From NCBI RefSeq assembly GCF_041248615.1, contig NZ_CP158426.1: a stretch of 64,000 nt of DNA; one strand, given 5' to 3'. The notes under the pieces were generated by a model. It did no database searches and was not told the origin of the DNA. It was given only the letters and a program-made list of their open reading frames with translations. Shown one piece after another: positions 7,026 through 64,000 of this stretch. Source of the stretch: Escherichia coli (GTDB taxonomy: Bacteria > Pseudomonadota > Gammaproteobacteria > Enterobacterales > Enterobacteriaceae). Positions within the stretch are counted from its first letter, which is position 1, and the number at the start of each line of letters is the position of its first letter. Position numbers and translations under genes: made by a program.

Positions 7026-7049
7026 TAAAACCAACATAAGGAACCACCC

Positions 7050-7487: not shown

Positions 7488-7495
7488 GGCAAATT

Positions 7496-8760: not shown

Positions 8761-8785
8761 ATTATTGCAAAATAAGGATTCCATT

Positions 8786-9082: not shown

Positions 9083-9092
9083 GGAATTTACA

Positions 9093-9556: not shown

Positions 9557-9557
9557 C

Positions 9558-10175: not shown

Positions 10176-10176
10176 T

Positions 10177-11083: not shown

Positions 11084-11142
11084 CAATCCTCGCACTCGCG
11101 GGGATTTCTTTTATCTGAACTCGCTACGGCGGGTTTTGTTTT

Positions 11143-11454
11143 ATGGAGATGATTATGGCCTGTTCAACATTCACCACTTTAACGTTACAGAAATACCAGC
11201 CAGACCCTGAAGATTTATACTCACTGTGTGGCGGAAATCATGGTAAAGCCGCCATGATCGAATGTAAGGACAAAATCCACATATGCCTTAATTGCGTTGA
11301 TGTCCTCGTTGATATCAAAAATGAAAGAGAAGATAAAAAGCGTAGCGAGGCTATTCGCGCCTTAGATTCATGGATGCGAGATGGGTATAGTGCTGCGCAA
11401 ATTTATGACTTAGCCATTTCAAAAGGCGAAATACCAGGAGTGCGCATCGAATAA
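11143..11454 (+). CDS. Hypothetical protein (103 aa)
   Basis: ORF track; followed by an intrinsic terminator. Confidence 0.4.
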   Translation: MEMIMACSTFTTLTLQKYQPDPEDLYSLCGGNHGKAAMIECKDKIHICLNCVDVLVDIKNEREDKKRSEAIRALDSWMRDGYSAAQIYDLAISKGEIPGVRIE

Positions 11455-11496
11455 GACGTAACCAATATTCGAATTGAAGAACTGAAAGAACACCAA

Positions 11497-11518
11497 GCCG
11501 CCTGATGGCGGTTTTTTC
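11497..11518 (+). terminator. Intrinsic terminator upstream of xis
   Basis: Stem gccgcc/ggcgg with loop tgat, followed by tttttt. Confidence 0.5.
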
Positions 11519-11544
11519 TTGCGTGTAATTGCGGAGACTTTGCG

Positions 11545-11763
11545 ATGTACTTGACACTTCAGGAGTGGAATGCACGCCAGCGACGCCCAAGAAGCCTTGA
11601 AACAGTTCGTCGATGGGTGCGCGAATGCAGGATATTCCCTCCTCCGGTTAAGGATGGAAGAGAATATCTGTTCCACGAATCAGCGGTAAAGGTTGACTTA
11701 AATCGACCAGTAACAGGTAGCCTTTTGAAGAGGATCAGAAATGGGAAGAAGGCGAAGTCATGA
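11545..11763 (+). CDS. xis: Excisionase Xis
   Basis: 72 aa MYLTLQEWNARQRRPRSLETVRRWVRECRIFPPPVKDGREYLFHESAVKVDL...; matches lambda Xis from memory. Overlaps the int start. Confidence 0.9.
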   Translation: MYLTLQEWNARQRRPRSLETVRRWVRECRIFPPPVKDGREYLFHESAVKVDLNRPVTGSLLKRIRNGKKAKS

Positions 11764-12811
11764 GCGCCGGGATTTACCCCCTAACCTTTATATAAGAAAC
11801 AATGGATATTACTGCTACAGGGACCCAAGGACGGGTAAAGAGTTTGGATTAGGCAGAGACAGGCGAATCGCAATCACTGAAGCCATACAGGCCAACATTG
11901 AGTTATTTTCAGGACACAAACACAAGCCTCTGACAGCGAGAATCAACAGTGATAATTCCGTTACGCTACATTCATGGCTTGATCGCTACGAAAAAATCCT
12001 GGCCAGCAGAGGAATCAAGCAGAAGACACTCATAAATTACATGAGCAAAATTAAAGCAATAAGGAGGGGGCTGCCTGATGCTCCACTTGAAGACATCACC
12101 ACAAAAGAAATTGCGGCAATGCTCAATGGATACATAGACGAGGGCAAGGCGGCGTCAGCCAAGTTAATCAGATCAACACTGAGCGATGCATTCCGAGAGG
12201 CAATAGCTGAAGGCCATATAACAACAAACCCTGTCGCTGCCACTCGCGCAGCAAAATCAGAGGTAAGGAGATCAAGACTTACGGCTGACGAATACCTGAA
12301 AATTTATCAAGCAGCAGAATCATCACCATGTTGGCTCAGACTTGCAATGGAACTGGCTGTTGTTACCGGGCAACGAGTTGGTGATTTATGCGAAATGAAG
12401 TGGTCTGATATCGTAGATGGATATCTTTATGTCGAGCAAAGCAAAACAGGCGTAAAAATTGCCATCCCAACAACATTGCATGTTGATGCTCTCGGGATAT
12501 CAATGAAGGAAACACTTGATAAATGCAAAGAGATTCTTGGCGGAGAAACCATAATTGCATCTACTCGTCGTGAACCGCTTTCATCCGGCACAGTATCAAG
12601 GTATTTTATGCGCGCACGAAAAGCATCAGGTCTTTCCTTCGAAGGGGATCCGCCTACCTTTCACGAGTTGCGCAGTTTGTCTGCAAGACTCTATGAGAAG
12701 CAGATAAGCGATAAGTTTGCTCAACATCTTCTCGGGCATAAGTCGGACACCATGGCATCACAGTATCGTGATGACAGAGGCAGGGAGTGGGACAAAATTG
12801 AAATCAAATAA
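11741..12811 (+). CDS. int: Tyrosine integrase Int (lambda-type)
   Basis: 356 aa MGRRRSHERRDLPPNLYIRNNGYYCYRDPRTGKEFGLGRD...; essentially lambda Int from memory. The adjacent P' arm and core follow. Confidence 0.95.
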   Translation: MGRRRSHERRDLPPNLYIRNNGYYCYRDPRTGKEFGLGRDRRIAITEAIQANIELFSGHKHKPLTARINSDNSVTLHSWLDRYEKILASRGIKQKTLINYMSKIKAIRRGLPDAPLEDITTKEIAAMLNGYIDEGKAASAKLIRSTLSDAFREAIAEGHITTNPVAATRAAKSEVRRSRLTADEYLKIYQAAESSPCWLRLAMELAVVTGQRVGDLCEMKWSDIVDGYLYVEQSKTGVKIAIPTTLHVDALGISMKETLDKCKEILGGETIIASTRREPLSSGTVSRYFMRARKASGLSFEGDPPTFHELRSLSARLYEKQISDKFAQHLLGHKSDTMASQYRDDRGREWDKIEIK

Positions 12812-33284: not shown

Positions 33285-33995
33285 TAAGGCTCTCTTACCA
33301 GCCGCGCCCTAACAGGCGCACACGATCTGACATTTGCATCCAACTTCGTTACTTACGGCCCGTAAACGGGCTGCCCGGATAGGGAATCGATAACTGCTCT
33401 CCCATTTTATCCTCTTCAAGCTGGTGCTTTATGTAATCCTGTATCTTCGCCGTGTTCTTACCCACCGTATCGACGTAGTACCCTCTGCACCAGAACTCTC
33501 TGTTCCTGTATTTGAATTTCAAATCACCAAACTGCTCGTAAAGCATCAGACTGCTTTTCCCTTTCAGATATCCCATAAAGCCGGATACGCTCATTTTGGG
33601 CGGGATCTCCACAAGCATATGGATATGATCTGCACAGCATTCAGCTTCAAGAATCCGTACGCTTTTCCACTCACACAGCTTTCTCAAAATACTGCCTATT
33701 GCTCTACGCTTCTCTCTGTAGAACACTTGTCTTCGGTATTTTGGCGCAAAAACTATGTGATATTTACAGTTCCATCGGGTGTGCGCTAAGCTCTTTTCGT
33801 TCCCCATTGGGACCCCCTTTTGATTTCTTGTTTGACACTTGCAGTTGCCAGACCGCAAGGTGTTTTAACAAATCAAAAGGGGTTTTAATAACTGGCTCAA
33901 AGCTGAAAGCTTTCCGGAACCCCCAGCCTAGCTGGGGGTTTTCTGTGCACAATGAGAAAGCCGACTGCAAGTGAGTCGGCTTTTTTGTTTGTCGT
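33285..33995 (-). mobile_element. IS200-family insertion sequence (approximate ends)
   Basis: Contains a 152 aa Y1 (HUH) transposase gene; element size approx 0.7 kb consistent with IS200. A strong hairpin gccgactgcaagtgagtcggc with T-tract at 33961-33988 lies near the tnpA-proximal end. Exact ends not determined. Confidence 0.6.
33349..33807 (-). CDS. tnpA: IS200/IS605-family transposase TnpA (Y1 HUH transposase)
   Basis: Track ORF 33349..33858 trimmed to MGNEKSLAHTRWNCKYHIVFAPKYRRQVFY... (152 aa), with the HxH motif (DHIHMLVEIPP) and a conserved Tyr region. Confidence 0.85.
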   Translation of the reverse strand: MGNEKSLAHTRWNCKYHIVFAPKYRRQVFYREKRRAIGSILRKLCEWKSVRILEAECCADHIHMLVEIPPKMSVSGFMGYLKGKSSLMLYEQFGDLKFKYRNREFWCRGYYVDTVGKNTAKIQDYIKHQLEEDKMGEQLSIPYPGSPFTGRK

Positions 33996-34009: not shown

Positions 34010-34090
34010 CACATTGCCTGATGCGACGCTGCGCGTCTTGCCAGGGCTACGGTGATTCATCGGATACGCCACTCTGACGGCGCATCCGAC
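34010..34090. repeat. REP-like palindromic unit(s) downstream of aroG
   Basis: gcctgatgcgacgctgcgcgtcttgccagggctac and inverted cggatacgccactctgacggcgcatccgac resemble E. coli REP/BIME elements. Confidence 0.4.
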
Positions 34091-47717: not shown

Positions 47718-49286
47718 TTAGCGTGCCGGCTGAGTAGTCGTGGAAGACTGCTCAAAGTGATAGCGACCGGTTTTCAGGCTGCTTGGGCCGAGGCGTGCAA
47801 ACTTGAACATTAAGAACAATTCTGCCACCAGGAACAGGGTATACAGGCCGCAAATCAGCACCATTGAGAAGATGAGATCGCCTGCGGTCAGTGACGAGTT
47901 CGCCACAGCTGTCGGCAGCACTTCACCGATAGCCCACGGTTGGCGGCCATATTCAGCCACGAACCAGCCCGCTTCTACAGCAATCCACGGCAGCGGAATA
48001 CCGTACAGCGCGGCGCGCAGCAGCCATTTTTTCTCGCCAATGCGGTTGCGGATGACACTCCAGAAAGAGAGCGCGATGATTGCCAGCAGCAGGAAGCCAC
48101 ACGCCACCATGATACGGAACGCGAAGTACAGCGGCGCTACACGCGGAATGGAGTCTTTGGTTGCCTGTTGAATCTGCGCTTCAGTCGCATCAGCCACGTT
48201 TGGCGTATAGCGTTTCAGCAGCAGACCGTAACCGAGGTCTTTCTTCATGCTATTGAACTGGTCACGAACCGCCTGGTCGGTAGAACCAGAACGCAGTTGT
48301 TCGAGCAGAGAGTACGCCTTCATCCCGTTACGAATGCGTTCTTCATGCTGCACCATCAGTTCTTTCAGGCCGATAACTGGAGTATCCACGGAACGCGTTG
48401 CAATGATGCCCAGCGCGTAAGGGATCTGGATCGCAAATTTGTTCGTCTCCTCTTCCTGATCAGGAATGCCGAACAGAGTAAAGGCAGCAGGCGCAGGTTG
48501 CGTTTCCCACTCGGCTTCAATAGCAGCCAGTTTGGTTTTCTGCACGTCGCCCATTTCGTAACCAGATTCATCACCCAGAACAATAACAGACAGAACGGCA
48601 GCCATACCGAAGCTGGCAGCGATAGCAAAGGAGCGTTTAGCGAAGGCGAAGTCACGACCTTTCAGCATATACCATGCGCTGATACCGAGGATGAACATCG
48701 CGCCAGTCACATAACCAGACGCTACAGTGTGAACGAATTTCACCTGAGCAACCGGGTTAAGCACCAGCTCGGAGAAGCTCACCATCTCCATACGCATAGT
48801 TTCAAAGTTGAAATCGGACGCGATTGGGTTTTGCATCCAGCCGTTCGCAACCAGAATCCACAGTGCGGACAGGTTTGAACCGAGCGCCACCAGCCAAGTG
48901 ACACACATATGCTGAACTTTACCCAGACGATCCCAACCGAAGAAGAACAGACCTACAAAGGTGGATTCGAGGAAGAAGGCCATTAGACCTTCGATTGCCA
49001 GCGGCGCACCGAAGATATCCCCTACATAGTGGGAATAGTAAGACCAGTTAGTCCCGAACTGGAACTCCATAGTCAGACCGGTAGCCACACCCAGAGCGAA
49101 GTTGATACCAAACAACTTGCCCCAGAACTTGGTCATATCTTTATAAATCTGTTTGCCGGAAAGGACGTAGACCGTTTCCATAATGGCCAGCAGGAACGCC
49201 ATACCGAGCGTCAGTGGCACAAAAAGGAAGTGGTACATCGCGGTCAAGGCAAACTGTAAGCGCGACAGTTCGACTATATCTAACAT
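47718..49286 (-). CDS. cydA: Cytochrome bd-I ubiquinol oxidase subunit I
   Basis: Track ORF 47718..49289 trimmed to [28 protein letters not shown] (522 aa). Confidence 0.95.
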
Positions 49287-49289
49287 CAT

Positions 49290-50091
49290 GACTCCTTGCT
49301 CATCGCATGAAGACTCCGAGAGTGAACCCCGTTAGAAAGGGTCACACGCATGCCCCAATACAAAATTATTTGCTCGCCTCTATCGTTGCCATTTCATCAA
49401 AAGAGGAAAAGACAATGATAAAAAAGTTACAAATATGTTAATGAATAAACCAAATTGATCCCGTAATTATATTACGCCGCAAAATCCTTACAATAAACAG
49501 GTTTTTATTGAGCAAATTTGCATTTTTCGACAGTGATCAATTTATAGCGAAATTGTCACGATCTCACCAATTTGATCTACGACAATTTATCGTGTTTTGC
49601 AGATTTTTTTCAAGAATTAAAAATTGATTTATATCAAAACCAACCAAATATGTTAATTATGTATAAACCATAGATCATTGGTGATTTTATTGTTAATTTA
49701 TTGTGAAATATTTATGCAACACAATTATTACAATGAAAAGGTATAGATAAAAAACCAGTGTTTTATTTAACAGAACCGCCCTATCCACTTTTTATAATAC
49801 CAATTGATTAGATTAGCCAATTTGTTGCTATTTTACATAACATATTTTTATCAAAGTTAATTGATTGTTGCCTTTATGAGCACCGGCCGTAAGCCCGTTA
49901 TGTTATTGTTTCATTAGTAATAATCACTTAAATGTATCGATGAAACAGGTATGACTTAGCGGGAGTGATTGTTTCTGAGTGAACAGAGACCACTTTCGCC
50001 TGATAAATGAAAAATGAGCGATTTTTGCAAGTTAGTTTTTCTATAGCCGAGTACGCTCAGCGCCTCGCTTGATTACAATGAGGTTGCTGCT
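49290..50091. promoter_or_regulatory. cydAB upstream regulatory region (long AT-rich leader/promoter)
   Basis: About 800 bp non-coding, strongly AT-rich, immediately upstream of cydA; by established knowledge cydAB has a long multi-promoter control region. Individual sites not mapped here. Confidence 0.5.
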
Positions 50092-51036
50092 ATGAGTCCT
50101 GATAATATCAGTTCTGCTGTCAATCGCTTCTCAGGTTGGCCATCTAATGATCCTCTAAAAACAGATAAAGAATCAATGACATCACCCATGACTGTGCAGG
50201 TAATAAAGATGATTGCCGCCATCCTTGATCCACATCGGATAGTCGTTGGAATCGATACACTTTATACAACGCAGCGCGAAACATTTACCTCAGAGAGTCA
50301 ACAGCTCATTGAATCAGCATTGCAAACACTTCATGTGATGAATTTAAATAACCTGGAAACAAATCTCGATGAGGAAGGTCACTATCTGGCTTTTGGATAT
50401 AACGTTGACACTCCTGACAGAATAACCGTTTCTGCTTATAATGAAAAAAAGCCTGGCTGCTATGGTCAATGTCTTTTAATACAGGATGACGAAACAGACT
50501 TATTTAACCTGATAAAAGTTAAAATTTTTGAAGCCAGGCATAATTATGTCGCTCAATTGATGAGCGATCCGGAATTTATGTTCAAATTTAGTTATAGCGC
50601 TCAACAAAATAGATTAGAACCTCATCTTCTGGTTCCCACTTATTTCCCTCTAAAAACAAACGAACCGGTTACGCAAGAGGATGTACTGTTACTTTATCGT
50701 TTCTTTAAAATGGATGGTGATTTTAATATATTAACATCAGATGAATACATGAGTATCATGACACCTCTGATGAAGTGTGAGCGCAGCATCCACGACCACA
50801 ACAGGTATGTGACGGGCAAAGATACCCTTCTTCTGGACTATCCTCCTTCTGGTAACCAGATATATTTCCATATTTTTCCTGACGAATCAGCAACACTAGT
50901 CCTTTATTTTTCAAACAATGACATTGAATGTTTCGTCTTTGAAAGAGATATTCCGAGCCAGTATCGCTTTTTCAAAATGTTTACCAATCTGGCACTGGTT
51001 ATTGATCAGTTAACCGATGCCAATCAAATACTTTAA
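50092..51036 (+). CDS. Hypothetical protein (314 aa), AT-rich orphan gene
   Basis: ORF track. Low GC and codon usage unlike flanking core genes; no recognisable motifs. Confidence 0.45.
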   Translation: MSPDNISSAVNRFSGWPSNDPLKTDKESMTSPMTVQVIKMIAAILDPHRIVVGIDTLYTTQRETFTSESQQLIESALQTLHVMNLNNLETNLDEEGHYLAFGYNVDTPDRITVSAYNEKKPGCYGQCLLIQDDETDLFNLIKVKIFEARHNYVAQLMSDPEFMFKFSYSAQQNRLEPHLLVPTYFPLKTNEPVTQEDVLLLYRFFKMDGDFNILTSDEYMSIMTPLMKCERSIHDHNRYVTGKDTLLLDYPPSGNQIYFHIFPDESATLVLYFSNNDIECFVFERDIPSQYRFFKMFTNLALVIDQLTDANQIL

Positions 51037-51116
51037 TTTTTATATATTCCCTGTGGCAAATATTGCCAAACAATGCCCGGGGATTAATTTTTATTACTCA
51101 CGGAAAGATTTAAATA

Positions 51117-51539
51117 ATGATCCCATCTCAAATCTCTTTCAACACCCTTCCTGTCAATGCAACATACGCTTCAGAGACAACAGTTGACACACAAAAATTC
51201 TCTGACATCCTCTACTCAGCGGGGTGTTCCCTAAAGGATCTGGCTTATCTGAGCAGATGTCTGGCATCAATACATCCGACTATCGCCAAAAACATTTATG
51301 AAACAGAAAATCTCAGCGATCAAAAATTACTGCATATTGATTGCCGTAGTACAAATGAAATCAAGATAAATATCTTTTTTGGTCAACAACGAGAAGGATT
51401 AATTGAAATTAATTCTGACACTGTCATTTTTCCGATATTGTCTTCATTAATTGACTCCGCCATTTCTAAATTTCAACACCAAATCCCCGTTAACGGTTCA
51501 GTAAATCCTGACCTATTGTATGAGGATTATACTGATTAA
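51117..51539 (+). CDS. Hypothetical protein (140 aa), AT-rich orphan gene
   Basis: ORF track. Low GC; follows the 314 aa ORF on the same strand. Confidence 0.4.
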   Translation: MIPSQISFNTLPVNATYASETTVDTQKFSDILYSAGCSLKDLAYLSRCLASIHPTIAKNIYETENLSDQKLLHIDCRSTNEIKINIFFGQQREGLIEINSDTVIFPILSSLIDSAISKFQHQIPVNGSVNPDLLYEDYTD

Positions 51540-52085
51540 ATCCACCCAGTCGCGAAAATGGCCTGCGTTATTGCCAGACGTAATAAAACTTTTGATTAAC
51601 GTTACTCGTACTGGTAGCACCTTCATGTACTTTTCTTTTTTACGAAAAATCAAAAGAGCTAACAAAGGTCATAATTCGCATGAATCATTAATTATTTGTT
51701 ATTTTCAACATTATTTTTACATTAAGCAGAGATGAATTGCAGTGAAATTCGACTTAACTTTTATGAAATGCATTTACTCATGGCTAAAGCCACGTCACAA
51801 AAATGCAAATTAGAAGTTGATCACAATTATCTCAATACATCAAATCAAGTTAATTTTAAAAATTTAACATTCATGACATTAGTTGACATAACACACTGAA
51901 TTAAAATGAGAATTTGAAAACACACTTTAAACAATCATTTCCCGAAAGACATTTTGAAAATAGATCAATTGCAACATTACGGTCAGATAAAGACACTCCT
52001 GTGATATTAAACCTGTGCCGTTATGAGCGGCCATAAATACGACGTGTGTAACTTATTTTACTCTCTGTCTTACAAAGGATTACCC

Positions 52086-52535
52086 ATGAAGAAAGCAACA
52101 CTTGTGATTGGCGTTATTGGCGCGGACTGCCATGCAGTAGGCAATAAAGTTCTGGACCGCGTTTTTAGCAACCATGACTTCAGAGTTATTAATCTGGGCG
52201 TAATGGTCAGCCAGGACGAATATATTGATGCTGCCATTGAAACTGGTGCTGACGCGATTGTCGTCTCCTCTATCTATGGGCATGGCGATATCGATTGTCT
52301 GGGCATGCGCGAACGCTGCATCGAGCGTGGGCTGGGTAACATCCTGCTCTATGTGGGCGGTAACCTGGTGGTCGGAAAACATGACTTCGCTGACGTGGAA
52401 ACCAAGTTCAAAGAGATGGGATTTGATCGCGTCTTTTCCCCAAGTCATGACTTAGAAGATGTTTGTCAGCTGATGGCCCACGATATCAACCAACGTCATA
52501 ACGTTGATACTCGCATTCTTGAAGAGGCAATCTGA
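52086..52535 (+). CDS. glmS: Glutamate mutase sigma subunit (methylaspartate mutase S chain, B12-binding)
   Basis: Track ORF 52023..52535 trimmed to [24 protein letters not shown] (149 aa), a cobalamin-binding DxHxxG-type motif (ADCHAVGNK). Confidence 0.8.
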
Positions 52536-53923
52536 TGCAAATCGTCTCTGTCGATATTGGTTCGACGTGGACCAAAGCAGCCCTCTTCGCCCGGGAGGGG
52601 GACGCGTTAACGTTGGTTAACCACGTACTGACCCCAACCACCACCCATCATCTGGCGAAGGGGTTTTTCTCCAGCCTGAACCTGGTGTTAAACGTAGATA
52701 ATGCCCTCCCCCTGTTTAACAGCGGTGAGGTTACATTGAAGTATTCCTCCTCTGCCAAAGGTGGGCTGGCGGTTGCCGCAATGGGATTGGTGCCTTCTAT
52801 CACCCTGGAAACCGCGAAAGTAACCGCTCACTCTGCGGGGGCTAAAATTGCGCAATATTACGCCTACAAGCTGAACCGCCGTGATATCCAGGCACTGGAA
52901 GAAACGCAGCCCGATATTCTCTTGTTCACCGGCGGCACCGACGGCGGAGAAGAAAGCTACGGCCTGAATAACGCCCGTGTGCTGGCAGAATCCAAACTCG
53001 ACTGCGCCATTATTTATGCCGGAAACCGGGATATTCAGGACGAGGTGCAGGAGATCCTAGGGCATAAAGACCTGACCATCGTCGACAACGTTCTGCCCGA
53101 TCTTGACCATCCGAACCCTTTAGCCGCACGCCAGGCTATCTGCGACATATTCCTTAAACGCATCGTTAAAGGGAAAGGGCTGGATGTCGTTGTTGATAAA
53201 ACAGGCGAAGAACCAATGCCGACACCATGGACGGTCTTTGAACTGGTTAAGGCAATCAGTAACGTCGATCACAGCTGGAAAGAGTTCATGCTGATCGACA
53301 TGGGCGGCGCAACCACCGATGTCTATTCCGCCTGTGCCAACACGCTCTCGCCCGACACCGTTTTACACGGCGTACCGGAACCCTTCGTGAAACGGACGGT
53401 GGAAGGCGATCTGGGAATGCGCGTCTCGGCAATGGTGGTTGGTGAAAGTGCGAAAGAGTTAGTCAATGTGAATTTTGCTCAGCAACCCGCACAGCTGGAC
53501 GCTTTTTATCATTACCTCCGTCATCTAGTCGCTCATCCCGACTACTTACCCGCGAATGCAGAAGAAAAATATTTCGATACCGTCCTGGCCGGACTGTGTG
53601 TGGGTTATGCCACCGAAAGACATGCGGGCACCAAAAAAGAGGTCTGCACCTGCGTCGGCAATGTCGATTTACAGATGGGACGTGACCTGACAACCGTGCG
53701 TAAAGTCGTCGGATCCGGCGGATGGCTCTCGCGTGCCAGTCAGTTCGATATGCATCACTGGTTGAAATACCGCGAGTTAAACGACGACGGTAAACGCATT
53801 CTCTTACCGACCGAATTTGAATATTACCGCGATTCCCGGGGGCTATTACCACTGCTGGCAAACGTCGCCAGAGTCGATCCGCTGGCCGCCGCGCGCACCA
53901 GTATTCAATGCTTAACCCTATAA
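52535..53923 (+). CDS. glmL: Glutamate mutase accessory protein (MutL/GlmL-like)
   Basis: 462 aa located between the S and E subunit genes, the arrangement known from Clostridium glutamate mutase operons. Confidence 0.7.
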   Translation: MQIVSVDIGSTWTKAALFAREGDALTLVNHVLTPTTTHHLAKGFFSSLNLVLNVDNALPLFNSGEVTLKYSSSAKGGLAVAAMGLVPSITLETAKVTAHSAGAKIAQYYAYKLNRRDIQALEETQPDILLFTGGTDGGEESYGLNNARVLAESKLDCAIIYAGNRDIQDEVQEILGHKDLTIVDNVLPDLDHPNPLAARQAICDIFLKRIVKGKGLDVVVDKTGEEPMPTPWTVFELVKAISNVDHSWKEFMLIDMGGATTDVYSACANTLSPDTVLHGVPEPFVKRTVEGDLGMRVSAMVVGESAKELVNVNFAQQPAQLDAFYHYLRHLVAHPDYLPANAEEKYFDTVLAGLCVGYATERHAGTKKEVCTCVGNVDLQMGRDLTTVRKVVGSGGWLSRASQFDMHHWLKYRELNDDGKRILLPTEFEYYRDSRGLLPLLANVARVDPLAAARTSIQCLTL

Positions 53924-53941
53924 CAATTAAGGCTGCAATCA

Positions 53942-55387
53942 ATGGAACTTCGAAATAAGAAATTAACCCATGACGAATTCATGACCGAGCGGCAACAGGT
54001 ACTGAAAACCTGGGAAACCGGCAAGGATGTTGAAAACTTTGAAGATGGCGTTAAATACCAACAAACCATTCCTGAGCATAAACGCTTCTCTCTTGCGCTG
54101 TTGAAAGCAGACAAGGAAGGTAAAACCCTTAGCCAACCGCGCGCAGGTGTGGCGCTGATGGACGAACACATCGAACTACTGAAAACACTACAAGAAGAGT
54201 GCGATCTGCTGCCGAGCACTATCGATGCATATACCCGTCTGAATCGGTACGAAGAAGCGGCTGTAGGGATTAAAAAATCCATCGAAGCCGGAACCTCTAA
54301 ACTGAACGGTTTGCCGGTAGTTAACCATGGCGTCGCAGCTTGCCGTCGCCTCACCGAAACCCTGCAAAAACCGCTACAGATCCGCCACGGCACGCCAGAT
54401 GCGCGTCTGCTGGCTGAAATCTCAATGGCCAGCGGCTTTACCAGTTATGAAGGCGGTGGCATTTCCTACAACATTCCGTATGCCAAACGCGTAACGCTGG
54501 AAAAATCGATCCGCGACTGGCAGTACTGCGACCGTTTAATGGGGATGTATGAAGAACACGGGATCCGCATCAACCGCGAACCGTTTGGCCCACTAACGGG
54601 TACGCTGATCCCGCCGTTTATCTCGCACTCTATCGCGATAATCGAAGGCTTGCTGGCGCTGGAACAGGGTGTGAAATCTATCACCGTTGGTTATGGACAG
54701 GTCGGCAGCCTGACGCAGGATGTTGCGGCGATCCAGTCTCTGCGTGAACTTGCACACGAATATTTTCAGAGCTATGGCTATACCGACTATGAATTAAGTA
54801 CCGTGTTTCACCAGTGGATGGGCGGCTTTCCGGAAGACGAATCGAAAGCGTTCGCTATTATCTCCTGGGGCGCAGCCGTCGCGGGGATGTCTGGTGCCAC
54901 CAAAGTCATCACCAAAAGTCCGCACGAAGCCTGGGGCATCCCGACTGCCGCTGCCAACATTCAGGGGCTGAAAGCCTCCCGCCAGATGCTCAACATGGTC
55001 AACGAGCAGAAATTCCCGCCGTGCCCTGCGGTTGAACTGGAAATTGAACTGATTAAGAGCGAGGTTCGCGCGGTACTGAATAAAGTGTTCGAACTGGGTA
55101 ATGGTGATATTGCGCGCGGTACGGTGCTGGCATTTGAAGCGGGCGTACTGGATGTGCCGTTTGCGCCAGCCGCCTGCAACGCGGGCAAAATTCTTCCGGT
55201 CCGTGACAACACCGGCGCGATACGCGTACTGGAAGCCGGAGCCGTTCCATTGCCAAAAGATATTCTCGACCTCCACCACGATTACGTTGCTGAACGCGCA
55301 CGCTTTGAAGGACGCCAACCGACATTCCAGATGGTTGTAGATGACATCAATGCTGTATCCCACAGTAAATTAATAGGAAGACCATAA
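53942..55387 (+). CDS. glmE: Glutamate mutase epsilon subunit (methylaspartate mutase E chain)
   Basis: 481 aa; size and position match GlmE. Confidence 0.8.
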   Translation: MELRNKKLTHDEFMTERQQVLKTWETGKDVENFEDGVKYQQTIPEHKRFSLALLKADKEGKTLSQPRAGVALMDEHIELLKTLQEECDLLPSTIDAYTRLNRYEEAAVGIKKSIEAGTSKLNGLPVVNHGVAACRRLTETLQKPLQIRHGTPDARLLAEISMASGFTSYEGGGISYNIPYAKRVTLEKSIRDWQYCDRLMGMYEEHGIRINREPFGPLTGTLIPPFISHSIAIIEGLLALEQGVKSITVGYGQVGSLTQDVAAIQSLRELAHEYFQSYGYTDYELSTVFHQWMGGFPEDESKAFAIISWGAAVAGMSGATKVITKSPHEAWGIPTAAANIQGLKASRQMLNMVNEQKFPPCPAVELEIELIKSEVRAVLNKVFELGNGDIARGTVLAFEAGVLDVPFAPAACNAGKILPVRDNTGAIRVLEAGAVPLPKDILDLHHDYVAERARFEGRQPTFQMVVDDINAVSHSKLIGRP

Positions 55388-56628
55388 TGAAAATAAAACA
55401 GGCTCTGTTCACCGCTGGCTACTCCTCATTCTATTTCGATGACCAGCAGGCGATAAAAAACGGAGCGGGTCATGACGGCTTTTTTTATACCGGGGAGCCA
55501 GTAACACAGGGGTTTAACGCCGTACGTCAGGCCGGGGAGTGCGTATCGGTACAGTTGATTCTGGAAAACGGCGCGGTCGCCGTAGGTGACTGTGCTGCCG
55601 TACAGTATTCCGGGGCAGGTGGTCGCGATCCACTGTTCCTCGCAGAGCACTTTATTCCGTTCCTCAACGACCATATCAAGCCATTACTGGTAGGCCGCGA
55701 TGTGGATGCTTTCCTGCCGAATGCCCGTTTCTTCGACAAATTGCGTATTGACGGCAACTTGCTACATACCGCCGTGCGCTACGGATTATCACAGGCGCTG
55801 CTTGATGCTACCGCGCTGGCAACCGGCCGTCTGAAAACTGAAGTAGTTTGCGATGAATGGCAGTTGCCACGCGTGGCGGAATCCATTCCATTATTTGGTC
55901 AGAGCGGTGACGATCGATATATCGCCGTCGATAAGATGATCCTTAAGGGCATCGACGTGCTGCCCCATGCACTGATTAATAACGTCGAAGAGAAACTAGG
56001 CTTTAAAGGTGAAAAACTGCGCGAATATGTCCGCTGGCTGTCGGATCGTATTCTGAGCAAGCGCACCAGCGCACGCTACCACCCTACCCTGCACATCGAT
56101 GTATACGGCACTATCGGTCTGATCTTCGATATGGATCCGCTTCGCTGTGCGCAATACATCGCCAGCCTGGAAAAAGAAGCGCAAGGCCTGCCGCTCTACA
56201 TTGAAGGGCCGGTCGATGCCGGTAACAAGCCCGATCAAATTCGCCTGCTGACCGCGATTACCAAAGAGCTGACGCGCCTCGGTTCCGGCGTGAAAATTGT
56301 GGCCGATGAATGGTGTAACACCTACCAGGATATTGTTGATTTTACTGATGCCGCCAGTTGCCACATGGTGCAAATCAAAACCCCGGATCTGGGCAGTATT
56401 CACAACATCGTCGATGCGGTTCTTTACTGCAACAGCCACAGCATGGAAGCGTACCAGGGCGGCACCTGCAATGAAACTGATGTCAGTGCCCGCACCTGTG
56501 TCCACGTCGCCCTTGCCGCTCGCCCTATGCGTATGCTGGTAAAGCCAGGGATGGGCTTTGACGAAGGCCTCGATATCGTCTTCAACGAAATGAATCGTAC
56601 TATCGCGCTGTTGCAGGCTAAGGATTAA
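55387..56628 (+). CDS. 3-methylaspartate ammonia-lyase (enolase superfamily)
   Basis: 413 aa MKIKQALFTAGYSSFYFDDQQAIKNGAGHDGF...; size and N-terminus match methylaspartase as remembered. Start overlaps the glmE stop. Confidence 0.8.
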   Translation: MKIKQALFTAGYSSFYFDDQQAIKNGAGHDGFFYTGEPVTQGFNAVRQAGECVSVQLILENGAVAVGDCAAVQYSGAGGRDPLFLAEHFIPFLNDHIKPLLVGRDVDAFLPNARFFDKLRIDGNLLHTAVRYGLSQALLDATALATGRLKTEVVCDEWQLPRVAESIPLFGQSGDDRYIAVDKMILKGIDVLPHALINNVEEKLGFKGEKLREYVRWLSDRILSKRTSARYHPTLHIDVYGTIGLIFDMDPLRCAQYIASLEKEAQGLPLYIEGPVDAGNKPDQIRLLTAITKELTRLGSGVKIVADEWCNTYQDIVDFTDAASCHMVQIKTPDLGSIHNIVDAVLYCNSHSMEAYQGGTCNETDVSARTCVHVALAARPMRMLVKPGMGFDEGLDIVFNEMNRTIALLQAKD

Positions 56629-56631
56629 CAA

Positions 56632-58002
56632 ATGGCTCGTTCTTTTAAAGTCTTATCGCCAACGGCAATCCTCGGGTATGGATTCCCGGAAGAGAGCTTC
56701 CGTAAAGCGATGGCAGAATCGCCCGATCTGATCGCCGTTGATGCAGGCTCTTCCGATCCTGGCCCCCACTACCTCGGGGCGGGCAAACCGTTTACCGATC
56801 GCGCAGGGGTCAAGCGCGATCTGCGCTATATGATCACCGCAGGCGTGCAAAATAATATACCGGTGGTGATCGGAACGGCTGGCGGTTCTGGTGCCGCACC
56901 ACACCTGGAGTGGTGCCGAGAAATAATTCATGAGATTGCCCAGGAAGAGCACCTCTCGTTCTCAATGGCGCTGATCCCGGCAGACGTTGACAAAGCCATC
57001 GTCCACCAGGCGCTGGATAACGGCAAAATCACGGCGCTGGAGTTTGTCCCGCCGTTAACCCACGACGCGATTGACGAAAGTACGTATATCGTTGCGCAAA
57101 TGGGCATCGAACCCTTCCAGCGGGCGCTGAAAGAAGGCGCGCAAGTGGTGCTGGGCGGGCGCGCTTACGACCCGGCCTGCTTTGCTGCGCTTCCGATCAT
57201 GCAAGGCTTTGATGAAGGTCTGGCGCTGCATTGTGGGAAAATCCTTGAATGCGCGGCAATCGCCGCAACGCCCGGCTCAGGCTCTGACTGTGCGATGGGC
57301 ATCATTGATGACAACGGCTTTACGCTGAAGACATTTAATCCGAAGCGTAAATTTACCGAAACGTCAGCGGCTGCACACACACTGTATGAGAAATCCGATC
57401 CCTACTTCCTGCCTGGACCTGGCGGCGTGTTGAACCTGAAAGGCTGCACATTTAAAGCGGTCAATGACAGCGAAGTGTACGTCAGCGGTTCTAAGCATGA
57501 AGAAACGCCGTATGCCCTGAAACTGGAAGGTGCGCGACGAGTGGGCTTCCGCTGTCTGACCATCGCAGGAACGCGCGACCCGATCATGATCGCCGGGATC
57601 GATAAAATCATCGATGAAGTCAAAACCAGCGTTTCGCGTAACCTGTCGCTCGACGATGACAGCATTCGCATCAATTTCCACCTGTACGGCAAAAACGGGG
57701 TGATGGGAGACCATGAACCGATGCAAACTGCCGGGCATGAGCTGGGGATTGTCCTTGATGTAGTTGCACCGACCCAGGAAATTGCCAACAGCGTTTGCTC
57801 GCTGGTGCGCTCTACCATGCTGCACTACGGCTATGAAAACCGCATCGCTACCGCAGGTAATCTGGCGTTCCCGTTCTCCCCTTCTGATATCCAGGGCGGG
57901 CCGGTATACGAATTTTCCATATATCACCTGATTGAAGCCAACGACGCTCTGCGTTTTGATTTCCATATTGAACAGGTGACGCCAGAAGGAGTTCAGGCAT
58001 GA
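56632..58002 (+). CDS. DUF1446 (AtuA-like) family protein, function unknown
   Basis: 456 aa ORF inside the mesaconate operon; family assignment from memory of AtuA-like sequences, unverified. Confidence 0.45.
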   Translation: MARSFKVLSPTAILGYGFPEESFRKAMAESPDLIAVDAGSSDPGPHYLGAGKPFTDRAGVKRDLRYMITAGVQNNIPVVIGTAGGSGAAPHLEWCREIIHEIAQEEHLSFSMALIPADVDKAIVHQALDNGKITALEFVPPLTHDAIDESTYIVAQMGIEPFQRALKEGAQVVLGGRAYDPACFAALPIMQGFDEGLALHCGKILECAAIAATPGSGSDCAMGIIDDNGFTLKTFNPKRKFTETSAAAHTLYEKSDPYFLPGPGGVLNLKGCTFKAVNDSEVYVSGSKHEETPYALKLEGARRVGFRCLTIAGTRDPIMIAGIDKIIDEVKTSVSRNLSLDDDSIRINFHLYGKNGVMGDHEPMQTAGHELGIVLDVVAPTQEIANSVCSLVRSTMLHYGYENRIATAGNLAFPFSPSDIQGGPVYEFSIYHLIEANDALRFDFHIEQVTPEGVQA

Positions 58003-58316
58003 AACAGTCAATTGTCTCACTGGCGCAAGTCATTCGTTCGAAAAATGCCGGACCTTACGAACTGGTTTTAGATATTTTATTTAAAACCAAAGAAAACTAT
58101 GAGCGTGTCAAATCATCAGGGCAATTAACCCCAGAACTGATCGCGCGCTTATATCATGTTGAACCTGACTTTATTCATCGTATTGTCTGGTTTGATCCTT
58201 CTAACGCAGTAAAAATCGTCATGCCACGAGATATTATCTCCGGGAATGTAGGTGACAATGATGTCTATGGTGCACAGCAACATGCACCTTTATTAAATAT
58301 GAGTTTCGATTTGTAA
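57999..58316 (+). CDS. DUF4387-like small protein, function unknown
   Basis: 105 aa; start overlaps the DUF1446-like stop (ATGA), suggesting translational coupling and a two-protein unit. Confidence 0.4.
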   Translation: MKQSIVSLAQVIRSKNAGPYELVLDILFKTKENYERVKSSGQLTPELIARLYHVEPDFIHRIVWFDPSNAVKIVMPRDIISGNVGDNDVYGAQQHAPLLNMSFDL

Positions 58317-58476
58317 AAATCCGAATACTTTTAGCCAACTGACATCCCGTCACTTATTGCAGTTCAACACTTCAGCTATTTGTAAGGTTGTAATAGCAGG
58401 TAGATGCCTGAATCTCTATTCGGGCATCTACTTCTCCTGATTCTGATTTATCGCCGTGCACCTGATGGAGGAAAAA

Positions 58477-59757
58477 ATGAAGAAAATAAGTTTAACCACG
58501 ATGATTCTTTTGGCGCTGGTACTTGGAATGATTATCGGCGTAGTGCTCAATAACACTGCTTCACCGGAAACCGAAAAACTCTATGCGCAAGAAATATCGA
58601 TATTCACGACGATTTTCTTACGACTGATAAAAATGATTATCGCTCCGTTAGTGGTCTCTACCCTGGTGGTAGGTATAGCTAAAATGGGCGATGCCAAAGC
58701 CCTTGGTCGTATTTTTTCTAAAACACTCTTTTTATTTATTTGCGCCTCATTGCTGTCAATTGCCTTAGGCTTGATAACAGTAAATTTCTTCATGCCAGGC
58801 ACAGGAATTAATTTTGTTGCACACGGAGCCGAAACCACCGGAGTGGTCGCGTCAGAACCCTTTACGCTAAAAGTATTTATTTCGCATGCTTTCCCCACCA
58901 GCATTGTCGATGCCATGGCGCACAATGAAATTTTGCAAATCGTGGTGTTCTCAATTTTCCTCGGCTGTAGCCTGACGGCGATTGGCGAGAAAGGCAGCGC
59001 CATCGTTCACGCCTTAGATTCGCTGGCACATGCCATGTTAAAGCTCACTGGCTACGTCATGCTCTTCGCTCCCCTGACCGTATTCGCTGCTATTTCAGCA
59101 TTGATTGCTGAACGAGGACTGGCAGTTATGGTGAGCGCCGGGATCTTTATGGGTGAATTTTATTTCACCATGTTATTACTTTGGGTGCTGCTTATCGGTC
59201 TGGCCATCGTTTATGTTGGCCCCTGCATCAGACGCCTGACCCGCGCCCTTTCGGAACCCGCCCTGCTGGCATTTACCACATCCAGTTCTGAAGCGGCTTT
59301 TCCGGGAACGCTTGAAAAACTGGAGCAATTTGGCGTTTCCCCCAAAATTGCCAGCTTTGTCTTACCCATTGGCTACTCATTTAATCTTGTTGGATCAATG
59401 GCCTACTGCTCCTTCGCCACAGTTTTCATCGCCCAGGCCTGCAATATCCATTTATCCATCGGTGAGCAAATCACCATGCTGTTGATCCTGATGTTGACCT
59501 CGAAAGGAATGGCTGGCGTACCACGCGCCTCAATGGTGGTTATCGCCGCCACGCTCAACCAGTTCAATATTCCGGAAGCGGGGCTGATCTTGCTGATGGG
59601 CGTTGATCCGTTCCTTGATATGGGGCGTTCCGCGACAAACGTCATGAGCAACGCAATGGGCGCTGCGATGGTGAGTCGGTGGGAAGGCGAACATTTCGGC
59701 GAGGGTTGTCGGGGTAAAGCATTAAAACCCAATGAATCGAACGTTGCTCTGCCCTGA
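58477..59757 (+). CDS. Dicarboxylate/amino acid:cation symporter (GltP/DAACS family), likely glutamate or C4/C5-dicarboxylate uptake
   Basis: Track ORF 58456..59757 trimmed to ATG 58477 with RBS ggagg (426 aa). Polytopic with conserved DAACS-like motifs. Confidence 0.75.
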   Translation: MKKISLTTMILLALVLGMIIGVVLNNTASPETEKLYAQEISIFTTIFLRLIKMIIAPLVVSTLVVGIAKMGDAKALGRIFSKTLFLFICASLLSIALGLITVNFFMPGTGINFVAHGAETTGVVASEPFTLKVFISHAFPTSIVDAMAHNEILQIVVFSIFLGCSLTAIGEKGSAIVHALDSLAHAMLKLTGYVMLFAPLTVFAAISALIAERGLAVMVSAGIFMGEFYFTMLLLWVLLIGLAIVYVGPCIRRLTRALSEPALLAFTTSSSEAAFPGTLEKLEQFGVSPKIASFVLPIGYSFNLVGSMAYCSFATVFIAQACNIHLSIGEQITMLLILMLTSKGMAGVPRASMVVIAATLNQFNIPEAGLILLMGVDPFLDMGRSATNVMSNAMGAAMVSRWEGEHFGEGCRGKALKPNESNVALP

Positions 59758-59864
59758 GGGGGATCTTAAGCAATCAGAAGCCAATGACTACGCATTTTTA
59801 TAAGCCGGATCATGAAGTTAGACGGCAATTAAGTAAAACTAACGTTTAAGGTGAAAAGTGAAAT

Positions 59865-61517
59865 ATGTCCAAACCATTTATCTGGCAAGAACCGTTTCTA
59901 CAAAATAAAGACGGTACAGAATATACATTAATTAGCGATCAACATATTACAGTAACGGAATTAGACGGCGAAGAAGTAATAAAAATCGCTCCTGAAGCAT
60001 TAACGCTGCTTGCCCGGCAGGCATTTTATGAAGCCTCTTTTTTCTTACGTTCCGCTCATTTGCAACAGGTCGCCAGCATTCTTAACGATCCGCAGGCCAG
60101 TAGTAATGATAAATACGTTGCGTTGCAGTTATTACGTAATGCTGAAGTCTCAGCAAAAGGGGTATTACCCAACTGTCAGGATACCGGCACCGCAACTATT
60201 GTTGCCAGTAAAGGGCAACAGATATGGACGGGAGGTAACGACGCTGAAGCCTTAAGCAAAGGCATTTACAGTACTTTCCAGGAAAATAACCTGCGCTTTT
60301 CACAAAATGCGCCGCTGGATATGTACACCGAAGTCAATACGCAAACCAATCTCCCGGGGCAGATTGATATCAGCGCTGTCGCTGGTGATGAGTACCATTT
60401 TCTCTGTATTAATAAAGGGGGCGGCTCTGCCAATAAAGCCGCGCTTTATCAGGAAACCAAATCCTTATTGCAACCAGAAAAACTGACCGCATTTTTAATC
60501 GAAAAAATGAAATCGCTGGGCACCGCTGCCTGCCCGCCTTACCACATCGCCTTTGTCGTCGGAGGGCTTTCAGCCGATCAAACCTTAAAAGTTGCCAAGC
60601 TGGCCTCAACGAAATATTACGACAATTTGCCCACCAGCGGAAACGAGCAAGGACAAGCATTCCGTGATATTGAGCTGGAAAAAGTATTGCTCGAGGCCAG
60701 TCAGCAATTTGGTATTGGTGCGCAATTTGGAGGTAAATATTTCGCTCATGATATTCGCGTCATTCGTCTGCCGCGTCACGGTGGCTCCTGCCCGATAGCT
60801 ATGGCGCTCTCCTGTTCTGCCGATCGCAATATCAAAGCAAAAATTAACAAGCACGGTATCTGGCTGGAAAAACTCGAACACAATCCGGGGCAATATATTC
60901 CAGCCTCACTGCGGGAAGAAAATCACGCGCAACATGTACAACTGGATCTAAACCGTCCGTTGCGTGACGTGATGCAGGATCTCGCCAGATTACCGGTAGG
61001 CACCCGCGTGTCGTTAAGTGGTCCCATCGTAGTGGCACGCGATATCGCCCACGCCAAAATAAAAGCGCGGCTGGATAACGCCGAACCGATGCCGGATTAC
61101 CTGAAGCATCATATTGTCTATTACGCTGGCCCGGCGAAAACACCGGAGAACATGGCCTGCGGTTCACTGGGTCCAACCACGGGCGGTCGAATGGACGGTT
61201 ATGTCGATACCTTCCAGGCGGCTGGCGGCAGTCTGGTGATGTTATCGAAAGGTAACCGCAGCCAGCAGGTCACCGATGCCTGTCACAAACATGGTGGCTT
61301 CAATCTGGGTAGTATTGGCGGTGCAGCTGCGTTACTGGCGCAAGAATATGTCAAAAGTCTGCGTTGCCTGGAATACCCGGAGCTGGGTATGGAAGCGGTG
61401 TGGATGATGGAAGTGGAAAATCTGCCCGCATTCATCCTGGTAGATGATAAAGGCAATAATTTCTTTAGTCAGTTTGAGCAGCAACACCGCTGCGCCAGTT
61501 GCCCTGCGGGACATTAA
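59865..61517 (+). CDS. fumD: Class I fumarate hydratase family enzyme (mesaconase/fumarase FumD-type)
   Basis: 550 aa FumA/FumB-like Fe-S hydratase (C-terminal CxxC-containing region). Its context with glutamate mutase and methylaspartase implies mesaconate hydration. Confidence 0.75.
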
Positions 61518-61526
61518 GGAAAATGA

Positions 61527-62129
61527 ATGGAAGCGCGAATTTCAACTGAACGGCATGTGCAGCGCCAGCAGAAATTGAAGGAACAGGTCGATACGCGCGT
61601 CGCGGCGGCGATAGAGAAAAAAGGGATTTTGATTGTTTTCACCGGCAATGGCAAAGGGAAATCCACTGCCGCGTTTGGTACTGTGACGCGCGCGGTGGGT
61701 CATGGCAAAACGGTGGGGGTTGCGCAGTACATCAAGGGGCAATGGGACAACGGCGAATACAACCTTCTCCAGCCGCTGGGGGTTGAGTTTCATATTATGG
61801 GAACCGGTTTTACCTGGGAGACACAGAACCGGCAAGCGGATATCGACGCGGCGAAAGAGGTCTGGTCGGAAAGCAAACGGATGCTGGCTGACAAGCGTTA
61901 CGACTTAGTGGTGCTTGATGAGCTGACCTATATGCTGGCTTACCATTATCTGGACACCGAAGAAGTGATCGCTTCTCTGCAAAACCGCCCGGCACAACAA
62001 AGTGTCATTGTCACCGGACGCGGTTGCCACAGTCAGATATTAAAAATGGCGGATACGGTCAGCGAAATCCGCCCCGTCAAACATGCTTTTGATAACGGCA
62101 TTCAGGCGCAGCCGGGTATCGACTGGTAA
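61527..62129 (+). CDS. Cob(I)alamin adenosyltransferase (CobA/BtuR-type)
   Basis: 200 aa with P-loop GNGKGKSTAAFG; highly similar to E. coli BtuR from memory. Likely supplies adenosylcobalamin for glutamate mutase. Confidence 0.8.
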   Translation: MEARISTERHVQRQQKLKEQVDTRVAAAIEKKGILIVFTGNGKGKSTAAFGTVTRAVGHGKTVGVAQYIKGQWDNGEYNLLQPLGVEFHIMGTGFTWETQNRQADIDAAKEVWSESKRMLADKRYDLVVLDELTYMLAYHYLDTEEVIASLQNRPAQQSVIVTGRGCHSQILKMADTVSEIRPVKHAFDNGIQAQPGIDW

Positions 62130-62162
62130 TAACTGCGCCTGGCATCCCGCCAGGCGCAGGTT

Positions 62163-63068
62163 TTACATCTCCTGCGGTACGACCGATTTCGCCAGCAACC
62201 ATTCACGAAATTGCTGCAAGTGCGGCGAGTCAGACTTCTCTTCCTGCCACGTCATAATAAAACGATTACCGGTACGAATAGGCACATCACAGGGAATCAC
62301 CATATCGCCACTATCCAAATCATGTTGAATAGCGAACCGTGGTAACAGCGCCACGCCGAGATTAGAGCGCACGGCGGCAATCAGCATTGAAAGCAAATCG
62401 AAACGTGGTCCGTTATTGACCAGCGGACTGCTAACGCCAGATAAAGCAAACCACTCTTCCCAGCCAGTAATACGGGTGCTTTGATGCAGAAGTGGTAACT
62501 CAGTAAGCAGTTCTGCCACTGACAGTTTTTGATCGGACATTGCAAGCAAACTGCCGCTGCATACCGGCAAAATCTCCTCATCAAAGAGATATTCTACTTC
62601 CGCCCAGGGCGCGCAAAAATTTTCGCGCATAATGACAGCATCGTACTCCCGATTAAGAAAATCGCCGTTATTAGCTAAAGAATGAATATTAACAATAATA
62701 TCGGGATGTAACTTTGTGAATTCATGTAAATTTGGGATTAACCAGTGGGTACTAAAAGTAGGATTAACGGCAAGTTCAATAACCTGAACCGTAGGCTGCC
62801 AGGTCATAATGGTATTGGTATCGCGTTCCAGCTTATTTAATGTTTCTTTTACTATCCCCAGGTAATACTTCCCTGCATCATTAAGAAAAATACGTTTTTT
62901 AGAGTGTGAAAATAACGGAGTATGTAAAAATTCCTCCAGCGCACTCACTTGTCTGAATACAGCACTTTGGGTTAACGCTAACTCCTCTGCCGCTCTGGTA
63001 TAACTTTCATGACGTGCGACGACCTCAAAAGTCACCAGCAGCTCCGTTTTAGGTATTTTTCCTCGCAT
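62163..63068 (-). CDS. LysR-family transcriptional regulator
   Basis: 301 aa with N-terminal LysR HTH (ESYTRAAEELALTQSAVFRQVSALE). Convergent with the operon. Confidence 0.8.
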   Translation of the reverse strand: MRGKIPKTELLVTFEVVARHESYTRAAEELALTQSAVFRQVSALEEFLHTPLFSHSKKRIFLNDAGKYYLGIVKETLNKLERDTNTIMTWQPTVQVIELAVNPTFSTHWLIPNLHEFTKLHPDIIVNIHSLANNGDFLNREYDAVIMRENFCAPWAEVEYLFDEEILPVCSGSLLAMSDQKLSVAELLTELPLLHQSTRITGWEEWFALSGVSSPLVNNGPRFDLLSMLIAAVRSNLGVALLPRFAIQHDLDSGDMVIPCDVPIRTGNRFIMTWQEEKSDSPHLQQFREWLLAKSVVPQEM

Positions 63069-63635
63069 AATGCCGTCCCTTAAAAATAGTTTAAACCATC
63101 AAAAATACATTACTTATTACGAAGTAATGGTAACCAAAGCAGCAATAAATAATTTATAAGAATCATGATTGACATTTATAACCCAGTAAGCCTAGCGTGA
63201 CAAATATCTTAATCAGATAATAATAATCCGAAAAGCACAGCGCCTTTCGAATTATCCGGAATCACATTAAGTGAAAATTATTAAATTGATATCATTTATC
63301 ATATCTGTGGATATTATGATAAACAATCAACAAAGATTTTATTTTTGATTTATAGCATATCCCTCTAAGAATTTTTGCGATGCTGCAATATCCGGGTAAA
63401 GACCCGATCCTGGCTGACAAATGGCACGACTTGACGATAAGCGGTGAACATCGCTTTTGTTGATTTACTTAACGCTACGGTCAAACGCTGGGAAGCCAGT
63501 GCATCAGGTAACGATTCGAAATTCGCCGTCGTTCTTATTCGTGGCTTGCGGTCGGTTGCGGCAATCCACAGTGGCTGTGGTCATGCAGTCAAGCCAGCGG
63601 TCAGATTTCGACCGTGGTTAACATTTAAGGCATAA

Positions 63636-63661
63636 AAAAGGCCATCATACGATGGCCAACC
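63636..63661 (-). terminator. Intrinsic terminator downstream of sucD
   Basis: Hairpin ggccatcgtatgatggcc followed by tttttt on the minus strand. Confidence 0.45.
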
Positions 63662-63732
63662 ATGTCGAAACCGACAGCCCTTCGCCATTCCTGTAGAGGG
63701 AAGCGGCGAGGGCTATTTCTTATTACAGATAT

Positions 63733-64000
63733 TTATTTCAGAACAGTTTTCAGTGCTTCACCGATATCCGCCAGGCTGCGAACGGTTTTCACGCCTGCGG
63801 CTTCCAGAGCAGCGAATTTCTCATCCGCAGTCCCTTTTCCACCGGCAATGATCGCACCCGCGTGGCCCATACGTTTGCCTTTCGGCGCAGTCACACCAGC
63901 GATGTAACCCACAACAGGCTTGGTAACGTGCTCTTTGATGTACGCAGCCGCTTCTTCTTCAGCGCTACCGCCGATCTCACCGATCATCACGATCGCTTCG
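63733..64000 (-). CDS. sucD: Succinyl-CoA synthetase alpha subunit, 3' part (partial; continues beyond window end)
   Basis: C-terminal 85 aa ...[44 protein letters not shown] matches the SucD C-terminus from memory. Confidence 0.85.

Follow-up and report, generated by a model that had tools for sequence, protein, structure and literature searches.

The DNA analysed here (hereafter the window) is a stretch of 64,000 nucleotides from Escherichia coli (contig NZ_CP158426.1 of RefSeq assembly GCF_041248615.1), and this report concerns the interval between the core genes cydA and sucD, where a ten-gene core at positions 52086-63068 appears, with good confidence, to encode a complete methylaspartate pathway of L-glutamate catabolism carried on a replacement island. 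Positions 49000-64000 are 100% identical in DNA to the chromosome of E. coli NRZ14408 (NZ_LT599825.1), and the RefSeq annotation of that record by the Prokaryotic Genome Annotation Pipeline (PGAP) agrees with the mechanical list of open reading frames (ORFs): the listed genes are intact and lie on the strands given below. The left core-genome boundary is cydA (47718-49286, minus strand), as annotated by PGAP in the identical record, and the right core flank is sucD (from 63733, minus strand). An earlier note on this DNA, written from the sequence by a model, had named glutamate mutase S, its accessory protein and E subunit, the ammonia-lyase, a DUF1446/DUF4387 pair, a dicarboxylate/amino acid:cation symporter (DAACS) family transporter, a FumD-like fumarase and a cobalamin adenosyltransferase, bounded by cydA and sucD; all of these were recovered, present and intact, in both the ORF list and the RefSeq annotation.

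The array, which lies entirely on the plus strand, begins with glmS (52086-52535), encoding the sigma, B12-binding subunit of glutamate mutase: it is above cut-off for the equivalogs NF002612 and TIGR01501 (251.9 bits at an NCBIfam equivalog cut-off of 110), and its translation carries the base-off/His-on DxHxxG motif as D-C-H-A-V-G. It is followed by glmL (mutL, 52535-53923), the accessory or reactivating protein of the mutase (NF040745, 508.9 bits, cut-off 475), and by glmE (53942-55387), the epsilon, catalytic subunit, which scores 865.1 bits for TIGR01503 (cut-off 390.1) and aligns end to end over residues 1-481 with the Clostridium glutamate mutase structures 6H9E and 1CCW (E ~1e-190). 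The next gene, mal (55387-56628), encodes 3-methylaspartate ammonia-lyase (TIGR01502, 543.9 bits, cut-off 286), in which Q172, H194, D238, E273, D307, Q329, K331, T360, C361, and L384 are all found at the clostridial positions. These are residues highlighted in the structure literature on this enzyme, including the catalytic Lys331 and His194 and the magnesium ligands. Further downstream lie the gene of the DAACS-family symporter (58477-59757) and fumD (59865-61517), which encodes a [4Fe-4S] fumarase of class I that prefers the mesaconase reaction (NF011921, 1281 bits, cut-off 1060). FumD aligns with the class I fumarase FH of Leishmania (5L2R), has its three Cys motifs intact, and shares 98.5% identity with ECs0757, which Kronen and Berg characterised. 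The last gene of the array is a cobO/cobA-type gene for an ATP:cob(I)alamin adenosyltransferase (61527-62129; TIGR00708, 246.6 bits, cut-off 167.75). Glutamate mutase, its reactivase, the ammonia-lyase, and the adenosyltransferase are assigned as predicted functions by equivalog-level homology together with conserved motifs, and with these scores the view that the locus is a glutamate fermentation cluster of the methylaspartate type holds.

Between mal and the symporter gene lie cmlA (56632-58002), encoding an AtuA/DUF1446 family protein, and cmlB (57999-58316), encoding a DUF4387 protein, the two overlapping by 4 bp. CmlA belongs to Pfam AtuA (PF07287, E 5e-19), an assignment that was confirmed, and DUF4387 is both the PGAP name of CmlB and the precomputed Pfam family on its homologues. 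CmlA matches chain A of the PDB entries 9ERQ and 9EVF at 420 of 456 residues (92.1%) without a gap, CmlB matches chain B at about 85% identity over its whole length (E 5e-57), and the depositors of these structures named the chains 'Citramalate lyase, subunit A (cmlA)' and 'subunit B (cmlB)'. The solved subunits of 456 and 105 aa have the same lengths as the pair in the window and come from a different host. In a preprint, the CmlAB enzyme is from Raoultella planticola and is stated to convert (S)-citramalate to pyruvate and acetate, and engineered E. coli with cmlAB and FumA showed mesaconate-dependent growth and acetyl-CoA labelling (10.64898/2026.01.16.699985). On these matches, CmlAB of the window is assigned as a putative citramalate lyase yielding pyruvate and acetate; the last step would then be encoded and the pathway complete on paper, and the statement in the earlier note that citramalate cleavage was not obviously encoded is not borne out. 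Homologues of CitD, CitE, or CitF were not found among the 12 ORFs by annotation or family match, and CmlAB is unrelated to the citrate-lyase-like citramalate lyase of Clostridia.

The gene neighbourhoods of homologues were then considered. CmlA homologues at 60-70% identity are widespread, and the order glmS-glmL-glmE-mal-cmlA-cmlB is kept in Yersinia enterocolitica, in a Rifleibacterium metagenome-assembled genome (MAG), and in two metagenome contigs with a CmlA of 62-64% identity to that of the window. Three of these four loci also have a class I fumarase close by, and genes for a CitDEF-type lyase were not found within 10 kb in any of the four. The linkage of mal with cmlAB in distant phyla supports the proposed lyase role as an independent, genomic line of evidence. 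Two further observations concern this gene pair. The GC content at third codon positions (GC3) is 0.34 in cmlB as against 0.61 in the overlapping cmlA, a contrast also seen in Yersinia (0.33 versus 0.45) and not in the non-enterobacterial loci. In loci outside Enterobacteriaceae, a protein of ~315 aa with a Walker A motif (GAEGSGKST) is encoded directly after cmlB (L006 11712-12665, L007 11677-12618, L008 11698-12654; 62% identity between L006 and L007). This protein has no Pfam domain, is absent from E. coli and Yersinia, and may act as a so far uncharacterised NTPase accessory to the pathway.

Convergent with the array, as the earlier note had it, lies a gene for a LysR-type regulator (62163-63068, minus strand; GcvA-like, below cut-off). 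It is 63% identical to the LysR-type regulator encoded divergently beside the glm operon in Y. enterocolitica, and because this linkage with the glm operon is conserved in Yersinia, the protein is likely to be the regulator of the pathway. Between the convergent cobO and lysR genes, the terminator scan placed a GC-rich hairpin of 11 bp (62133-62159), likely a bidirectional terminator. The 546 bp upstream of glmS (51540-52085, plus strand) stand out in composition, with 32% GC, and are presumed to be the promoter and regulatory region of the operon; this AT-rich stretch may keep the operon silent in laboratory conditions. An Rfam scan of positions 49000-64000 at E <= 0.1 reported neither a cobalamin riboswitch nor another Rfam element there. 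The search for a LysR box or a motif shared between the upstream regions of E. coli and Yersinia gave AT-rich k-mers at chance level and weak dyads only, so no LysR binding site is claimed, and a promoter scan returned fewer matches than in shuffled sequence and was hence not used.

In E. coli K-12, the same interval has the order sucD-sdhX-mngR-mngA-mngB-cydA, so that the mannosylglycerate utilisation genes mngRAB occupy the slot that holds the glm cluster here; the two sets of genes are unrelated and show no sequence similarity. When the K-12 sucD-cydA interval was compared with the whole 64-kb window by BLASTN, only the flanks matched, with breaks at 49662 and 63630, and no DNA of mngR, mngA, or mngB was found in the window. 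Since K-12 homology ends at the one position and resumes at the other, mngRAB is absent, in agreement with the replacement claimed in the earlier note, and the possibility that the three genes had merely been overlooked there falls away. Compared with a genome in which a tetratricopeptide-repeat (TPR) pseudogene is the sole filling of the interval, the break points lie at 49927 and 63632, and the replaced segment therefore measures ~13.7 kb. The alignments thus delimit a replacement island at about 49928-63631 within the variable interval from sucD to cydA. Between the two flanking genes, neither an integrase nor a transposase nor a tRNA is annotated, and the search for flanking repeats found k-mers shared between the borders at chance level (2 of 10 nt versus 1.3 expected); it is therefore likely that the island was exchanged by recombination within the conserved flanks.

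The right end of the replaced segment is a non-coding spacer of 563 bp (63069-63631), made up of the lysR promoter region and a GC-richer stretch (63380-63620). Six-frame translation of the spacer gave no ORF, and tblastn and blastn found no similarity to the Yersinia cluster genes or the other fetched loci; it may be a gene remnant. Conserved core sequence resumes with sdhX (63632-63732, minus strand), a small RNA gene in the 3' untranslated region of sucD. The stretch including sdhX (b4764) is 98.7% identical to K-12, and the terminator scan placed the sdhX terminator at 63657-63640. The gene was not reported by the Rfam scan described above and was recognised by alignment with K-12 instead.

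How widespread the two fillings are was assessed among 5,426 complete E. coli genomes: the mngRAB interval was found at >=80% coverage in 3,862 of them, and the glm cluster in 1,138, of which 1,117 reach >=80% coverage. A further count, of 1,537 genomes, matches the K-12 interval only at 80-90% identity, and among the matches listed in this band, only ~250 bp upstream of cydA match. The count can therefore accommodate the 1,138 island genomes and ~400 more with neither filling. Together, the numbers suggest that one slot takes either the glm island or mngRAB, a relation checked directly in this strain and in O157:H7 Sakai. Other states of the interval were also seen. In one genome with neither filling, the TPR-protein pseudogene stands alone (locus L004, 6938-8053), and this TPR-only state would account for ~8% of complete genomes; in a further contig, a homologue of the orphan gene hyp1 described below is accompanied by an unannotated ORF of 258 aa (locus L005, 11786-12562). 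The sucD-cydA slot is a recombination hot spot.

Two orphan ORFs lie inside the replaced segment on the cydA side of the pathway genes, and the earlier note was silent on them, as it was on sdhX and the 563-bp spacer, although both low-GC ORFs fall within the coordinates it gave. They are hyp1 (50092-51036, plus strand; 314 aa, isoelectric point (pI) 4.7, 38% GC) and hyp2 (51117-51539, plus strand; 140 aa, pI 4.65, 37% GC), neither of which has a match in Pfam, NCBIfam, PADLOC, PHROGs, or PDB. Only Escherichia copies or fragments came back from a word-indexed search and from a full phmmer run against 1.84 billion representatives: homologues of hyp1 are confined to Escherichia, and all named homologues of hyp2 are from Escherichia or Shigella. 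Profile-profile comparison of the two was negative, and the AlphaFold models are of low confidence, with a mean predicted local distance difference test (pLDDT) score of 43 and 46, respectively. The ratio of non-synonymous to synonymous differences per site (pN/pS) relative to Sakai is 0.41 for hyp1 and 0.18 for hyp2. DNA of the two ORFs is present in 1,138 complete E. coli genomes, the same number as that of island carriers, and in E. coli the pair accompanies the island. Because a hyp1 homologue of 65% identity adjoins cydA in the contig L005, which has no glm cluster, hyp1 and hyp2 were treated as a separate module, and hyp1 is probably not part of the pathway even though it lies inside the replaced segment. 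The similar length of hyp1 and the P-loop protein of ~315 aa that follows cmlB elsewhere led to hyp1 being considered as its counterpart, which was rejected as the two show no similarity.

The system as such is already known. The enterobacterial cluster was described by Kronen and Berg (PLoS One, 2015; PMC4682846), who named its fumarase FumD, found a two- to three-fold preference of this enzyme for mesaconate over fumarate, found 26.5% of E. coli genomes, and 90.6% of those of O157:H7, to carry the cluster, and did not settle what becomes of (S)-citramalate. In O157:H7 Sakai, ECs0755-ECs0767 occupy the same site with the same gene content, order, and orientation, the two orphan ORFs included. 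The core of 11.1 kb (ECs0755-0764 against window positions 52000-63100) is 98.6% identical in DNA and 98-100% in protein, and the differences are point substitutions only. The equation with the O157:H7 cluster made in the earlier note is therefore right (PMC4682846), and the content of the interval is strain-specific rather than new. The legacy annotation of Sakai (ECs0760 and ECs0759; locus L003, 11633-13317) labels CmlA '3-methylaspartate ammonia-lyase', as a second such enzyme, and CmlB 'acyl-CoA synthetase'.

The Clostridia, represented by C. tetanomorphum and C. tetani, likewise have glmS, glmL, glmE, mal, and an iron-sulfur mesaconase, and GlmE of the window aligns over its full length with the C. 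cochlearium structure. The chemistry from glutamate to pyruvate and acetate is the same (PMC4682846). The clostridial systems have a two-subunit mesaconase MesAB, a CitDEF-type citramalate lyase with CitCXG, and a GntR regulator, in contrast to the single-chain FumD, CmlAB, LysR regulator, and dedicated cobO and symporter genes of the window. The Pseudomonas AtuA protein of acyclic terpene utilisation shares the Pfam family PF07287 with CmlA, but the similarity is weak and confined to residues 63-393, the gene context is different, and the reaction of AtuA is not established; the likeness is therefore one of family and does not imply functional equivalence.

The route proposed for the ten-gene core is as follows. 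The DAACS symporter would import the substrate, probably glutamate, and CobO would adenosylate salvaged cobalamin, on which the pathway presumably depends. GlmS and GlmE, kept active by GlmL, would rearrange (S)-glutamate to (2S,3S)-3-methylaspartate, from which methylaspartate ammonia-lyase would release ammonium to give mesaconate. Hydration of mesaconate to (S)-citramalate would be carried out by FumD, a step demonstrated biochemically with the 98.5% identical O157 enzyme, and CmlAB, assigned from its solved and named homologue, would cleave citramalate directly to pyruvate and acetate. Pyruvate would then enter the ordinary mixed-acid metabolism of E. coli. Since FumD has an oxygen-labile cluster, the pathway is expected to operate under anoxic conditions.

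Several points weigh against this reading. E. coli does not synthesise cobalamin de novo, so that activity depends on external corrinoid, and the enzyme functions in this strain are predictions from the genes. The symporter stays below both cut-offs (DctA 312.7 bits, cut-off 513; GltP 303.4 bits, cut-off 638), for which reason its substrate was left unassigned; Kronen and Berg called it GltP (PMC4682846). The lyase assignment rests on PDB molecule names and a single preprint, because the primary CmlAB paper was not found: a literature search for a primary description of CmlAB, for the function of DUF1446/DUF4387, and for the O157 locus tags yielded only PMC4682846 and that preprint. Lastly, in strain ATCC 700728 the cluster was not expressed, and glutamate neither supported anaerobic growth nor had a stimulating effect (PMC4682846). 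This lack of both expression and a growth phenotype, the very AT-rich upstream region, and the established inability of E. coli to make B12 would also fit a cryptic, silenced relic without present function in this species. Such a relic is very improbable: between the window and Sakai, two lineages with a synonymous divergence (pS) of only 0.048, the ten genes show a pN of 0.0036 and a pN/pS of 0.074, and all ten ORFs are of full length, so that the genes are kept by selection, which speaks against decay, and the island is retained at >=80% coverage in the 1,117 genomes counted above. Equally far-fetched is a pathway that stops at (S)-citramalate, to be excreted or otherwise used, which was the view taken in 2015 (PMC4682846) and in the earlier note. 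The island has no CitDEF-type lyase, and extracts of cells grown on citrate, acetate, or propionate had no citramalate lyase activity (PMC4682846), but the cluster was not expressed in those extracts (PMC4682846), the AtuA/DUF4387 pair is 92% and 85% identical to a solved citramalate lyase that was put to use in vivo as such in the 2026 preprint (10.64898/2026.01.16.699985), and cmlAB directly follows mal in distant phyla.

What the main substrates are is a separate matter, and one alternative, compatible with a complete pathway, is that external C5-dicarboxylates (mesaconate, citramalate, methylaspartate) enter through a DctA-like symporter and that glutamate is secondary. The symporter scores about equally for DctA and GltP, FumD prefers mesaconate (PMC4682846), AtuA/DUF4387 pairs occur without glm and mal, as in an Accumulibacter MAG where the pair stands alone, and the GC content of the symporter gene and fumD (~49%) is lower than that of glmL to cmlA (53-55%). 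I nevertheless regard this as unlikely, given that five genes (glmS, glmL, glmE, mal, and cobO), under strong purifying selection, are devoted to the B12-dependent conversion of glutamate, and that every enterobacterial genome with the glutamate mutase and mal genes has fumD located alongside them (PMC4682846). A related and similarly doubtful idea is that FumD, CmlAB, and the symporter let island-positive, often pathogenic E. coli take up and catabolise mesaconate and citramalate, besides glutamate, while living in the gut or in tissue that is inflamed and, separately, that hyp1 and hyp2 form an unrecognised accessory or regulatory module. Mesaconate is reported to be a host metabolite made from itaconate. 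The complete methylaspartate pathway acting on glutamate is thus retained as the best explanation of the cluster.

Elsewhere in the window, positions 1-12811 hold part of a lambdoid prophage with NinE, NinB, the O and P replication proteins, CII, Cro, and a CI-like repressor, as well as Kil, CIII, an excisionase, and an integrase, the integrase end adjoining ybhC. An IS200C transposase gene (33349-33807) lies between gpmA and aroG, and beside it, at about 34014-34053, is a short repeat of ~40 bp that has a match in the K-12 intergenic region between sucB and sucC as well.

For annotation, the comparison with PDB 9ERQ means that the RefSeq names 'acyclic terpene utilization AtuA family protein' for CmlA and 'DUF4387 domain-containing protein' for CmlB are outdated, as are the legacy Sakai labels. 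Recognising the pair as a probable citramalate lyase supplies the last step that the pathway lacked in 2015, and predicts that about one-fifth of E. coli, including the O157:H7, O145:H28, and O55:H7 lineages, would be able to turn glutamate into pyruvate, acetate, and ammonia if supplied with B12 and kept anoxic. If the pathway is complete, the missing phenotype would be a matter of regulation and not of an absent enzyme, and what induces the operon becomes the sharper question. Beyond E. coli, the assignment would offer a starting point for understanding function in the large AtuA/DUF1446 family.

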